Shown here: positions 23,680 to 28,397 of the stretch, one piece after another
Layout of the letters: every line of letters begins with the position of its first letter
How positions within the stretch are numbered: the first letter of the stretch is position 1
Origin: an uncultured Planctomycetales bacterium
GTDB lineage: Bacteria; Planctomycetota; Phycisphaerae; UBA1845; Fen-1342
NCBI GenBank assembly: GCA_964428275.1
Contig: CAYRXN010000088.1
Coordinates: 1-28,397 of the forward strand
Length of the DNA stretch: 28,397 nt
Reading direction: 5' to 3'
Translations under genes and position numbers: made by a program
Notes under the pieces: model-generated
Databases searched by the model: none
Told to the model about the DNA's origin: nothing
Seen by the model: only the letters and a program-made list of their open reading frames with translations

Positions 23680-26600
23680 ATGGTCCGACCACAGCGTACA
23701 CAACCGGCAGCACGCCGAACGCCAGGCCGATCCGCGAACAACGGCCTGCACTGGCTCGTCGTGCGCCGGGCGGCCCACAACAACCTCCAGGACATCGACG
23801 CCTGGCTGCCGCTGGGACGCTTCATCTGTGTCACCGGCGTGTCCGGCTCGGGCAAGAGCTCGCTGGTCAACGACATCCTCTACAAGGCCCTGGCCCGCGA
23901 CCTCAACGGCGCCAAGACCACGCCGGGGCGGCACGAGCGCATCGACGGACTGGCGCACCTCGACAAGGTCATCGCGATCGACCAGTCGCCGATCGGCCGG
24001 ACGCCGCGCAGCAACCCGGCCACGTATATCAAGCTGCTCGACGAGATCCGCCAGCTCTTCGCCAGGCTGCCCGACGCGAAGCTGCGCGGCTACAAACCCG
24101 GGCGCTTCAGCTTCAACGTCTCGGCCCCCAAGGGCGGCGGACGCTGCGAAGCCTGCGAGGGCAACGGGGCCAACCGCATCGAAATGGACTTCCTGGCCGA
24201 CCTGTGGGTCACCTGTCCGGTGTGCGCGGGCCGGCGCTTCGCGCGCGAAACGCTCCAGATCCAGTACAAGCACAAGTCGATCGCCGACGTGCTCGAGATG
24301 GACGTGCAGCAGGCGCTCGCGCACTTCGAGAACGTGCCGCGCGTCCGCCACATGCTCCAGACGCTGCACGACGTGGGGCTCGACTACATCAAACTCGGCC
24401 AGCCCAGCACCACGCTCTCGGGCGGCGAAGCCCAGCGCGTCAAGCTGGCCCGCGAGCTGGTCAAGCGCGCCACCGGCCGCACGCTGTACGTCCTCGACGA
24501 ACCGACCACCGGGCTGCACTTCGACGACATCCGCAAACTGCTGGCCGTACTCCACGGCTTCGTCGACGCGGGCAACACCGTGGTCGTCATCGAGCACAAC
24601 CTCGACGTGGTCAAGACCGCCGACTGGATCATCGACCTCGGTCCCGAGGGCGGCGAGGCCGGCGGGCGGATCGTCGCCGAGGGGACGCCCGAGCAGATCG
24701 CCCAGTGCCCGGCGTCGCACACCGGGGCGGCGCTGCGCGACGTGCTCAGCGGACGCGAAGCCCTGGCTGCTTCAGGCGCCCCGAAGCGTCGAAAGAAAGG
24801 CCGGCCGGCGGCGCTCGGCGCAGCGGCCGCAGGTGGCGAAGTGGACGCGATCACGGTCGTGGGGGCGCGGCAGCACAACCTCAAGGACGTGACCGTGCGC
24901 ATCCCGCGCGACCGGATGACCGTCTGCACGGGCGTGTCCGGCTCGGGCAAGACCAGCTTCGCCATCGACACCGTCTACACCGAGGGGCACCGGCGCTACG
25001 TCGAGTCGCTTTCGGCCTACGCCCGCCAGTTCCTCGGCCAGATGGCCAAGCCGCGGGTCGATCACATCGAGGGGCTCAGCCCGGCCATCTGCATCGAGCA
25101 GAAGTCGGCCAGCAAGAGCCCGCGTTCGACCGTCGGCACCATCACCGAGATCTACGACTACATGCGCGTGCTGTGGGCGCGCGTCGGCACGCCCTACTGC
25201 CCGCAGTGCGGCGTGCCGGTCGGCGCGCAGACCATCGACGAAATCTGCGACCGCATCTTCGAGCTCGACCAGGGGGCCCCCATCATCATCCTCGCCCCGG
25301 TGCGGCTCGGCGACGGCGAGACCTATGCGGCGCTGTTCAACCGCCTGCGCCGCAGCGGCTACACGCGCCTGCGCATCGACGGCGAAATCGTCCAGACCGC
25401 CCAGGCCGTCACGCTGGATGCCCGCCGCAAGCACCGCGTCGAGGTCGTCGTCGATCGAACCGTCGTGCGCGGCCGCAACCGCGGCCGCATCACCGAGAGC
25501 GTCGAGCACGCGCTGGCGCTCGGCGACGGCGTGATGACGCTGCTGATCGAGGCGGTCGAGACCGTCCGCGACGAGCCGGATGAAGCAGCATCGCCGCGGC
25601 GGCGCGTCCGCGTGCGCAAGACGCGCCAGCGCGCGCTGCGCTTCTCGCAGAAGCTCTCGTGCCCGCGCTGCGGCACGGCCTTCGACGAGCTCTCGCCCTA
25701 TCACTTCAGCTTCAACAGTCCGGTGGGCTGGTGCGAGACGTGCGAGGGACTCGGCGTGCAGCGCGGTGCGCCCCAGGCCGCGATCATCACACGCCCGGAG
25801 CGGTCGCTGCTGAAAGGGGCCCTCGCCGGCTGGGCCGACATCCGCCGGGCCAGCCCGCTGGGCCGCATGCTCACGGCGTTGTGCGAGCGATTGGGGGTCG
25901 ATCCCGACACGCCGCTGAGCGAGTGGAGCCACGAGCAGATTCAGGCCCTGCTGTTCGGCACGACCGGCGACTGGATCGACGCCGGGGCGGCCTTCCCGGG
26001 CGTGCGGTTCCACTGGCGCGGCCTGTTTCCCACCATCGACGCCGCCACGCGCAACAGCTGGCTGCTGCGCCACCGCCTGGCGAACATCGTCACCGACATT
26101 CCGTGTACGGCGTGCCGCGGGGGACGGCTGCGGCCGGACGCCGCCGCGGTGCGGCTGGGTGGTTCGGGCCGGGCGGTCCGCGCCGGCCGGCCGGGCGGCA
26201 AGACGATCGTCGAGGTCTGCAACCTGCCGCTCGAGCAGATCGTGGGGTTCTTCAAGACGCTGCGGCTCGACGCCCGCCAGCGCCAGATCGCCGGCGAGCT
26301 GCTGCACGAAATCCGCAACCGCCTCCGGTTCCTCATCGACGTCGGCCTGGGCTACCTCACGCTGCACCGCGCGGCGCCCACGCTCTCCGGCGGCGAGGCC
26401 CAGCGCATCCGCCTCGCCAGCCAGATCGGCTCGGGCCTCACCGGCGTGCTCTACGTGCTCGACGAACCGACCATCGGCCTGCATCCGCGCGACACCGCGC
26501 GGCTCGTGCAGGCCCTGCGCAAGCTGCGCCGGCTCGGCAACACGCTGCTGCTGGTCGAGCACGACCGTGACGTGATCGCCAGTGCCGACCGCGTGCTCGA

Positions 26601-28397
26601 TTTCGGCCCGCGGGCCGGACGTTTCGGCGGGCGGATCGTCGCCGAGGGCCGGCCGGCCGAGCTGCGCAGGCCGCCGCGGAAGCAGGATGCCAAGGCGCGC
26701 CGCCCGGCCGGCGACCAGCAAGTTTCCGCCGCCGACGGCGCGGCGCTGCCCGACGACGGCGGTGTCTCGTTGACGCGCGCCTATCTGTCCGGTCAGGCGG
26801 CCATCCCGGTGCCCGCCAACCGCCGGCCGGTGGGCGCCGGCGACTGGCCGAAGAAGCCGGCCCGGCCTGCCGGGCGCAAACGCAGGGGCCGGGCGCACGC
26901 GGCGGTGGCGGCTGGTCCCGACGCTCCGGTATCGAACTGGCTCGTGGTGCGCGGGGCGCGCCAGCACAACCTCAAGCAGATCGACGTGCCGATTCCGCTG
27001 GGGCGGTTCGTGTGCGTCACCGGCGTATCGGGCAGCGGCAAGAGCTCGCTGGTCAGCGACGTCCTCTACGCGCACCTGGCGCGGCAGTTGCAGCGGGCCA
27101 ACGTCACGCCCGGCGTCTGCGACGCCGTGGAGGGCATCGACGCGCTCGACAAGGTCATCAACGTCGATCAGTCGCCGATCGGGACCACGCCGGCCAGCAA
27201 CCCCGCCACCTACACCGGCGCGTTCGACTGGATTCGCGAGTTGTTCGCCCGGCTGCCCGAGAGCAAGCTGCGCGGCTGGGAGGCCAAGCGTTTCAGTTTC
27301 AACCGTCCCGGCGGACGCTGCGACGCCTGCGAGGGACAGGGCCAGCGCTGCATCGAGATGCACTTCATGCCCGACGTGTGGGTCGCGTGCGAGGTCTGCG
27401 GCGGCCGGCGCTACAACCCCGAAACGCTGGAGGTGCGGTTCAAGGGCAAGTCGATCGCCGACGTGCTCGATCTGTCGGTCGCCGAGGCGCTCGAGCTGTT
27501 CGCCAACGTGCCCAAGGTCCGCCGCATGCTCGAGACGCTGGGTGACGTGGGGCTGGATTACGTCCAGCTCGGCCAGCCGGCGCCGACGCTCTCGGGCGGC
27601 GAGGCCCAGCGGGTCAAGCTCGCGGCCGAGCTGGGCAAGCCGCAGACCGGGCGCACGTTCTACATCCTCGACGAGCCGACCACCGGGCTGCACTTCGACG
27701 ACATCCACAAGCTGCTGGAGGTGATCCACCGGCTGGTCGATCTGGGCAACACCGTGCTGGTGGTCGAGCACAACCTCGACGTGATCAAGAGCGCGGACTT
27801 CGTCATCGACCTGGGCCCCGAGGCGGGCGCGGCCGGCGGATACGTCGTGGCGCTCGGCACGCCGGAACAGCTCGTCAGCGGCGAGGCGGGCGAACTGGCC
27901 CGGCGGTGCAATCCGCGGCCGGCGGCTGCGCTCGTTTCGCACACCGCCGCCGCCCTGGGGCCGGTGCTGGCGAGCGGGCCGCGCGAAACGCGGCGGCGCT
28001 GCGACCCCCGCGCGCACGCCCGCGCGCAGTTGCAGGCCGAGCGGGCCCGGTTCGGCGACGTGGGCAAGGGCACGCGCATGCCGTGGCAGGTGGATGGCCG
28101 CCACTGGCACCTGCGCCAGCGCACCAACCGCGACGGCCGGCCGTGCCGCTGGGAGCCGGCGGCGCTGGAATACGTGGTGGACCTCGTGCAGCGGGTCGGC
28201 CGGGGGCGGTTCGCGCCGACCAACTGGAACAACCGCGCCAGCGTCGAGATCACGGCGCCCGGCGCCCGCGTGTGGTTCCTGCACGCCCTGACCGGCGGGG
28301 AGTGGCTGCTGGAGCTGTATTTCCGCGTGCCGCGGGGCACGTTCGACTGGCGCGCGCTCGACGCCGAGCTCGGCTTGCTCACGCTCGACGAGCGCGA
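23680..28397 (+). CDS. uvrA: UvrA-like excinuclease ABC subunit A with unusual architecture (continues past window end; >=1572 aa): N-terminal extra NBD-II-type ABC module with zinc finger (aa ~22-355), a linker, a complete canonical UvrA from ~aa 388 (NBD-I with UvrB-binding and insertion domains, then a second NBD-II with zinc finger, to ~aa 1425), and a C-terminal extension of unknown function
   Basis: Continuous frame from ATG 23680, which follows an in-frame TAA at 23656-23658; every codon to 28397 was checked and there is no stop. It is absent from the ORF track because it runs off the window. Module A: [37 protein letters not shown], zinc finger CEACEG...[40 protein letters not shown], tail [18 protein letters not shown]. 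Canonical part: (V)[80 protein letters not shown]...RLRIDGE...VEVVVDR (UvrB-binding region), CPRCG...[30 protein letters not shown], then [37 protein letters not shown] ... CDACEG...[40 protein letters not shown] possible internal start is GTG 24841, preceded by AGGTGG. Confidence 0.85.

Follow-up and report, generated by a model that had tools for sequence, protein, structure and literature searches.

A three-module uvrA gene of Phycisphaerae as a candidate large subunit of a split double UvrA

The long uvrA gene and its modules

UvrA, the damage sensor of nucleotide excision repair (NER), acts as a symmetric homodimer, in which each ATP site consists of the Walker A motif of one nucleotide-binding domain (NBD) sandwiched with the signature of the other NBD. 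Here we describe a long uvrA gene on contig CAYRXN010000088.1 (assembly GCA_964428275.1) of an uncultured Planctomycetales bacterium, which is placed in the Phycisphaerae (UBA1845; Fen-1342) by GTDB; the analysed stretch, referred to as the window, comprises positions 1 to 28,397 of this contig. The gene starts at ATG 23680 on the plus strand, runs off the window and encodes, in this order, an NBD-II, a basic linker, a complete class I UvrA and an extension of ~200 residues (Table 1). Judged from its sequence, the product is the NER damage sensor UvrA in a form typical of one clade of Phycisphaerae, and on balance we favour the view that it represents the large subunit of a split four-NBD UvrA, whose missing first NBD-I (NBD-Ia) would be encoded in trans.

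The frame is open for 1572 codons up to the window end, and a further 57 codons past the edge, known from the database protein P0001, bring the full gene to 1629 codons; P0001 differs from the window protein in 2 of 1544 residues (99.9% identity). An in-frame TAA is located 24 nt 5' of the ATG, so that the open reading frame (ORF) cannot reach further upstream and an N-terminal NBD-I within the same ORF is excluded, GTG 23659 being the only earlier start candidate. The G+C content at third codon positions (GC3) of the frame is 0.93. Walker A motifs are found at residues 53, 418 and 1115 and LSGGEAQR signatures at residues 246, 902 and 1304, while each of the two NBD-II copies carries an EHN H-loop and a CxxC...CxxC zinc finger; in the leading copy, module A, the set comprises Walker A, zinc finger, signature, Walker B (DEP..GLH), EHN and the SHT tail. 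A sequence-only reading of this stretch had described a single frame of 1572 codons to the window end with the order NBD-II, NBD-I, NBD-II and an extra C-terminal domain, and translation, motifs and Pfam matches agree with it. The same reading put the identity of the two NBD-II copies at ~60% by eye, which compares with a computed 62.6%, and held both to be catalytically intact with zinc fingers, as the motifs confirm.

Residues 389-1415 correspond to a complete class I UvrA, as represented by E. coli b4058 and the structures 2r6f, 3pih, 3zqj and 9gxk, and contain both NBDs, the UvrB-binding and insertion domains, the zinc modules and the dimer-interface segment. Pfam recognises the UvrB-interaction domain PF17760 once (residues 517-622, E 1e-31) and the insertion domain PF17755 once (residues 701-766, E 3e-10), the latter as a partial match to profile positions 4-68 of 110. 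The UvrA equivalog models NF001503 and TIGR00630 of NCBIfam were matched in three stretches, with 1777.5 bits (cut-off 1147) and 1726 bits (cut-off 729.8), respectively, and in a search of the PDB, UvrA chains could be aligned to all three modules. Residues 389-1415 thus pass all class I UvrA tests, but the chain as a whole does not have the class I architecture: class I UvrA is a homodimer of 940-aa chains with one NBD-I and one NBD-II each, whereas the window protein has 1629 aa and three NBDs, being enlarged at its N-terminus by a further NBD-II with a basic linker of 38 aa and at its C-terminus by ~200 aa. Class II UvrA proteins (D. radiodurans UvrA2, 2vf7; Ecm16, 7sh1; DrrC) are likewise UvrA-derived ABC ATPases with an altered domain content, but they lack the UvrB-binding domain and keep the pair of NBD-I and NBD-II, whereas the window protein has the UvrB-binding domain and misses an entire NBD-I. 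The presence of this domain indicates that the window protein is not class II, and of all UvrA structures found in the PDB, those of class II gave the weakest matches. Another UvrA far longer than 940 aa is the long 'excinuclease ABC subunit A' of NCBIfam model NF001885 (PRK00635; 1809 positions), which we take to be the chlamydial UvrA of ~1790 aa. The window protein matches this model in three stretches with 919 bits against a cut-off of 3054 and is not a member; a planctomycetal fused double UvrA (P0075, see below) also fails, with 1418 bits.

Table 1. Parts of the long uvrA gene in the window
Feature	Position	Strand	Basis
Long uvrA gene, first 1572 of 1629 codons, runs off the window	23680..28397	+	translation, NCBIfam, homologues
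In-frame TAA 5' of the start	23656..23658	+	sequence
22-residue leader, poorly conserved	23680..23745	+	22.7% identity to the 86%-identical orthologue
Module A (NBD-IIa), orthologous to the latter half of UvrA copy 1	23746..24729	+	trees, motifs, dN/dS 0.085
Flexible linker joining copy 1 to copy 2, basic (KRRKKGRP...)	24730..24843	+	dN/dS 0.44; linker shared by fused forms
NBD-Ib of the complete UvrA copy, including the dimer/lesion-probing segment ...GLSPAI	24844..26679	+	trees, PDB matches
UvrB-binding domain PF17760	25228..25545	+	Pfam
Insertion (DNA-binding) domain, partial PF17755 match	25780..25977	+	Pfam
Inter-NBD linker of copy 2, including a basic stretch	26680..26934	+	translation, dN/dS comparison
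Module C (NBD-IIb of copy 2)	26935..27924	+	trees, motifs
UvrA tail and conserved helical connector (..YDP.AHA.. in relatives)	27925..28077	+	alignment
Trp-rich C-terminal domain with MPWxxDGxxWH, cut by the window edge after 106 of its 163 residues, predicted double-wing-like fold	28078..28397	+	alignment, predicted structure

Distribution and descent of the three-module form

A search of a collection of 5.8 billion proteins returned 8000 candidates, and architectures were read from the best 120, which with one exception cover 96-100% of the query. Two architectures account for these 120 matches. The shorter one, of 1600-1870 aa, combines three Walker A motifs with a single C-terminal MPWxxDGxxWH module and is labelled as coming from Phycisphaerae or Planctomycetota metagenome-assembled genomes (MAGs); the longer one, of 2270-2420 aa, has four Walker A motifs, nearly always together with two MPW modules, and carries labels such as Gemmataceae and Pirellulales. 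In P0075, one of the fused proteins, the complete UvrA profile is matched twice, corresponding to two whole UvrAs in tandem. UvrA-like matches of ~1000-1170 aa were considered as canonical paralogues, but all of them turned out to be truncated or frameshifted pieces of fused genes. The same uninterrupted three-module order was found in at least 41 independent protein clusters and at ~25 genome loci, so that frame and architecture of the window gene are neither due to chance nor an assembly artefact; the proposal that the duplication is old holds as well. A genome scan with the C-terminal domain, using one genome per GTDB species, found 396 loci, of which the best 80 were inspected. All but two of the 80 bear planctomycete labels, the remainder being one 'bacterium' and one 'Alcaligenaceae' MAG that is probably mis-binned, and the three-module order is shared by all complete Phycisphaerae loci of the 80. 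Seven MFD long-read MAGs (L040, L053, L057, L061, L071, L079, L081) contain the long uvrA ORF in pieces, most likely as a result of frameshift errors, which calls for caution with short 'standalone' C-terminal-domain proteins in the databases.

The three-module uvrA is therefore the standard form of a large clade of Phycisphaerae, abundant in databases under the names 'excinuclease ABC subunit UvrA' or 'ATP-binding cassette domain-containing protein', and not the isolated, unmatched architecture for which the sequence-only reading had taken it. A UvrA-UvrA fusion in Planctomycetes has already been mentioned in print, in one sentence of a paper (Mahajan et al., PMC8567305) which also states that the fused UvrA of Tuwongella immobilis was detected by proteomics along with UvrB, UvrC and UvrD. 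In the literature searched, with Figure 13 of PMC8567305 and the older reviews of UvrA classes lying outside its scope, no mention of the three-module form, of the split genes or of the C-terminal domain was found, and within the same literature, again apart from those older reviews, the phrase 'class III UvrA' did not occur. The suggestion that the protein belongs to no described class thus holds in so far as no paper describing the three-module form was found in this literature, but has to be qualified, since the form is a derivative of the published planctomycetal fusion (PMC8567305).

The relation between both forms was derived from neighbour-joining trees with bootstrap, for which the proteins were cut into modules and E. 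coli UvrA served as the outgroup. Module A of the window protein clusters with the copy-1 NBD-II of the fused proteins (bootstrap 99/100), the trailing module C with the copy-2 NBD-II (100/100) and the single NBD-I with the copy-2 NBD-I (100/100), indicating that the window protein corresponds to a tandem UvrA minus NBD-Ia. Window protein and fused double UvrA (the latter mentioned in PMC8567305) therefore share orthologous NBD-IIa, NBD-Ib and NBD-IIb modules (bootstrap 99-100%), and they have the basic inter-copy linker and the C-terminal MPW family in common. By contrast, NBD-Ia (~620 aa, with one UvrB-binding and one insertion domain) is present only in the fused form, which has four NBDs in one ORF and two C-terminal modules, whereas the window protein has three Walker A motifs, no upstream NBD-I remnant and one C-terminal module of the same profile family. 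The segment involved in dimerisation and lesion probing (...GLSPAI) is kept in the single NBD-I of the window protein as well as in both NBD-I copies of the fused proteins.

In a tree of the three shared modules the window protein falls inside the family, which consists of three groups. Clade I comprises Planctomycetia and is fused throughout; clade II contains the fused proteins P0015 and P0017, all loci at which a split-off NBD-Ia gene adjoins the three-module gene (see below), and the loci L031 and L032, which are three-module without an adjacent half; clade III is the window clade, a separate branch that includes the complete genome CP054190.1 (L029). In this tree the split forms nest among the fused ones, leaving the latter paraphyletic, which places the fusion first and the fission later. 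At L029 an N-terminal extension, suggested by a stop-to-stop frame of 2271 codons, was dismissed, being Arg-rich, non-coding-like and without similarity to NBD-I; the real start is near codon 628. Relative to an 86%-identical orthologue on contig L082, the ratio of nonsynonymous to synonymous substitutions (dN/dS) is lowest for module A (0.085), compared with 0.106 for NBD-I, 0.112 for module C, 0.107 for the C-terminal domain and 0.24-0.44 for the linkers. In every one of 41 three-module proteins, module A retains its Walker A, signature, Walker B and H-loop along with the zinc finger. It is the slowest module in each clade and, measured from clade I, has diverged no further in clade III (0.317) than in clade II (0.313), without acceleration in the window clade. 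By these measures module A is not a relic, and its function appears to be retained.

NBD-Ia as a separate gene and the three-module protein as a probable large subunit

The missing module was encountered at locus L030 of clade II, where tblastn revealed a 670-aa NBD-Ia ORF directly 5' of the three-module ORF in another frame, with the TGA of the small gene overlapping the ATG of the large one (AAATGATG; ATGA overlap, 3795-3801). A search with this half-protein retrieved more than 85 clusters of standalone NBD-I halves of 620-760 aa, which carry PF17760, PF17755 and an ABC domain and many of which are named UvrA and come from Phycisphaerae or Phycisphaerales MAGs; some of them reside on contigs of up to 5.9 Mb and are thus not fragments. 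Among nine half-gene neighbourhoods inspected (L030, L083, L086-L092), the half-gene lies directly 5' of the three-module gene at seven (L030, L083, L087, L088, L090, L091, L092) and is unlinked to it at the other two (L086, L089). The junctions vary: an 11-nt overlap at L083 (~8024-8037), a GTGA overlap at L087 (~7989-7992), TGAGGTG at L090 (8996-9002), a short gap at L088 and ~11 nt between the called genes at L091, while at L092 a 197-aa ORF without a Pfam match (9151-9744) is inserted between the two uvrA genes. Since the junctions at L030, L083, L087, L088 and L090 are all different and clean, they point to a genuine split of the gene with translational coupling rather than to sequencing error. 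Coupling of the small and the large gene is suggested by the overlaps, and the four types of overlap or abutment (ATGA, 11-nt, GTGA, TGAGGTG) possibly reflect more than one fission event. The cut is located in the flexible linker between NBD-I and NBD-II of copy 1 and not between the two copies, and the large genes of the split loci (L030, L083, L087, L088, L090-L092) match the window protein in module order and in the short, unconserved leader. L031 and L032 have three-module genes with two C-terminal modules and are sister to L030; no NBD-Ia was found within ~3-4 kb upstream of either. Unlinking of the small and large genes seems to have occurred more than once, because L031 and L032 have no half upstream and the unlinked half P0283 (L089) clusters near the half of L030 in the NBD-Ia tree.

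According to the trees, then, fusion was followed by fission. In an ancestor of the Planctomycetota two uvrA copies were joined head to tail (NBD-Ia, NBD-IIa, linker, NBD-Ib, NBD-IIb and one to two MPW domains), giving a single-chain version of the UvrA2 dimer that the Planctomycetia retain. In Phycisphaerae-related lineages the gene was then re-cut elsewhere, at the flexible linker between NBD-Ia and NBD-IIa, which left a small gene of 620-760 aa, encoding NBD-Ia together with a UvrB-binding and an insertion domain of its own, and a large gene for NBD-IIa, NBD-Ib, NBD-IIb and the C-terminal domain. In canonical UvrA, the dimer interface is provided by ATP-binding domain I of both protomers and the main DNA contacts by signature domain II with its zinc-finger hairpin, while the division of labour among the four ATP sites and two UvrB-binding sites is still debated (PMC12796330). 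Transferred to the split system, NBD-IIa and the separately made NBD-Ia would form the usual head-to-tail ATP sandwich, and this pseudo-protomer would dock on copy 2 via NBD-Ia:NBD-Ib, the canonical UvrA2 dimer interface. The outcome would be a UvrA2-like assembly of two unequal chains with four ATP sites, two UvrB-binding domains and presumably two signature-II/zinc-finger DNA clamps, to which the basic inter-copy linker and the double-wing-like C-terminal domain may add lineage-specific contacts, most likely to DNA and possibly to a partner protein. Given the small-subunit genes of the sister lineages, the leading NBD-II most likely pairs with an NBD-Ia encoded in trans.

For the window clade itself, several observations weigh against a partner in trans. 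No adjacent NBD-Ia is present within 3-8 kb on either side at ~27 clade-III loci, nor is there any in the 28.4-kb window, including the 23.7 kb upstream of the gene; a hidden NBD-I upstream, whether in a different reading frame or decayed to a pseudogene, was rejected, as three NBD-Ia queries used in tblastn against the window matched only the gene's own modules. All standalone NBD-Ia proteins retrieved are of clade II, with none of the clade-III type among the matches listed, and a comparison of whole-genome-shotgun prefixes and GenBank protein accession ranges found no clade-III genome with both genes. A clade-III NBD-Ia is, however, expected at ~55% identity to the queries, with a score just under those of the best 120 matches listed, so that its absence from these matches says little. 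The same gaps are what one would see if NBD-Ia had been lost altogether in the window clade and NBD-IIa worked without its canonical partner, a reading that we regard as tentative and the less probable one. It could take the form of an NBD-II:NBD-II ATP sandwich across two chains that dimerise via NBD-Ib, resulting in a six-NBD homodimer, or of NBD-IIa alternating with NBD-IIb on NBD-Ib, and it would also be in line with the single NBD-I of the clade-III protein, for which a canonical NBD-I:NBD-I interface requires two chains anyway. We know of no NBD-II homodimer reported for any UvrA. Moreover, module A is neither relaxed nor accelerated compared with lineages that demonstrably keep NBD-Ia, an indirect argument for a persisting partner, its invariant signature makes sense only opposite the Walker A of a partner, and unlinked NBD-Ia genes exist in the sister clade (L086, L089). 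The proposal of the sequence-only reading that the third module is unpaired is therefore probably wrong in general, since the missing NBD-I is a separate gene in sister lineages, although the NBD-II:NBD-II pairing it envisaged is possible for the window genome. Equally tentative is the combined scenario in which NBD-Ia is wholly lost, the intact NBD-II acts without a canonical partner, for example in a six-NBD UvrA, and the Trp-rich C-terminal domain serves as a new DNA- or lesion-binding NER module.

The remaining explanations appear far less probable than either of these. Translation might also, or only, start at GTG 24841, which is located exactly at the N-terminus of the canonical part behind a poorly conserved linker, so that a canonical UvrA with the C-terminal domain would do the work and module A would be separate or dispensable; this is improbable, as purifying selection acts more strongly on module A (dN/dS 0.085) than on any other module, and module A is in frame with the remainder in every homologue, fused or split, and is preceded, not followed, by the gene boundary in split genomes. 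UvrA paralogues are common, and the gene could accordingly encode a class II-type protein directed against DNA-binding drugs (as UvrA2, DrrC or Ecm16) rather than a repair protein, with a canonical uvrA elsewhere in the genome. We consider this just as hard to maintain: apart from the UvrB-binding domain, which class II lacks, and the scores above the UvrA equivalog cut-offs, the class II structures 2vf7 and 7sh1 are far weaker PDB matches than class I, the gene neighbourhood is of the housekeeping type and not a biosynthetic cluster, and the fused protein of Tuwongella immobilis is reported as UvrA alongside UvrB, UvrC and UvrD (PMC8567305). An assembly chimera or a hidden frameshift joining a partial to a complete uvrA, finally, has a negligible probability. 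It is suggested by the a-priori oddity of the gene and by the broken ORFs in some nanopore-based assemblies of relatives, and is contradicted by the recurrence of the order in the independent clusters and genomes counted above, by the near-identical second assembly (P0001), by a GC3 of 0.93 throughout and by a dN/dS well below 1 in every module. The window gene as the large subunit of a split four-NBD UvrA with NBD-Ia in trans therefore remains the reading that we prefer, if only by a modest degree of confidence.

C-terminal domain, gene neighbourhood and significance

Beyond the SHTAAAL end of the canonical UvrA, which is followed by a further 152 residues up to the window edge, a conserved helical connector leads to a domain of 163 aa. 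In an alignment of 40 sequences (A1), positions P47, W48, G52, W55, H56, W70, W95 and F134 (alignment numbering) are invariant. None of the 40 members matched a Pfam family, a PDB profile search with the domain gave no match, and a profile search of 1.84 billion representatives retrieved 548 proteins with the domain, which are essentially long UvrAs and their fragments. To judge by these 548 cluster representatives, the domain is a new sequence family that is restricted to long planctomycetal UvrAs. Standalone proteins were considered as a free-standing family, but no clear case was found, most of them resembling pieces of long genes or products of frameshifts in nanopore assemblies. Relatives at the level of the fold were sought with the predicted structure of the domain, which matched a YdhG-like protein (9t2w, score 9.1), DR2400 (DUF419; 2a1v, 9.0), E. 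coli YjbR (2fki, 8.0), PSPTO_3016 (2kfp, 7.8) and the C-terminal domain of T4 MotA (5jlt, 6.8); Foldseek gave weak matches, with MotA on top (E 0.035). The description of this part as lacking a recognisable motif thus stands at the level of sequence, whereas its predicted fold has recognisable relatives. YjbR-family proteins and the MotA C-terminal domain have been characterised as DNA binders of the 'double-wing' type (PMC7641849 citing Singarapu 2007, Feldmann 2012), and an accessory role in binding DNA, or possibly a partner, may be assumed for the planctomycetal domain from its predicted fold. Compared with YjbR/MmcQ (PF04237; 2fki, 2a1v, 2kfp), the YdhG-like protein (9t2w) and the MotA C-terminal domain, the window domain has no sequence similarity and possesses an extra N-terminal helical part with the invariant MPW..G..WH; it is Trp-rich and nearly neutral. 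A relationship to YjbR as a sequence homologue was rejected (hhalign against E. coli YjbR, probability 0.2%). While the first MPW module is Trp-rich and near neutral in charge, the second MPW/EPW module of the four-NBD forms (P0075 ~2169-2321 and equivalents) is strongly basic (+8 to +11) and shares 21-26% identity with the first, and because of this difference in charge the two copies are probably specialised.

The fold that the C-terminal domain of planctomycetal UvrAs resembles most has YjbR as its founding member. In E. coli K-12 (NC_000913.3, 4270000-4275000, L001), yjbR (659-1015, plus strand) and uvrA (1050-3872, minus strand) are convergent neighbours with 34 nt between their stop codons, which could be coincidence. 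If the combined scenario of a lost NBD-Ia, an NBD-II without a canonical partner and a new DNA- or lesion-binding C-terminal domain were true, the adjoining yjbR and uvrA of E. coli may hint at a wider link between YjbR-like proteins and UvrA.

The genes next to uvrA differ between the window and the L082 contig of the 86%-identical orthologue, so that a conserved operon context was rejected. At 872-2404 (minus strand) the window encodes a PheS of 510 aa with winged-helix domains (MarR_2, HTH_IclR and related matches) ahead of the class II core, a length and layout that we take to be those of the archaeal/eukaryotic-type PheRS alpha subunit and not of the bacterial form of ~330-350 aa. Two unusually long genes with Band_7/SPFH domains follow each other at 8551-10341 and 11265-12716 (both minus strand), and a pair of Band_7 genes is also present on L082 (15023-16964, minus strand), just downstream of the orthologous uvrA but in a different position relative to it than in the window. 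The sole tRNA of the window is tRNA-Leu(GAG) at 12795-12869 (minus strand).

The gene is less exceptional than the sequence-only reading held, because the form is common in its lineage and an obvious candidate exists for the partner of the 'orphan' module. Nucleotide excision repair as generally understood is not altered by it, and the architecture is abundant in databases under the name of UvrA. What the Planctomycetota provide are natural single-chain and differently split versions of UvrA, in which the two 'protomers' have diverged to ~46% identity in NBD-I, so that each of them can be mutated independently. The most constrained part of the whole machine is the NBD-II of copy 1, and the order of events seen in the trees, a fusion followed by a fission at another linker, illustrates clearly how the domains of an essential repair protein can be re-partitioned.

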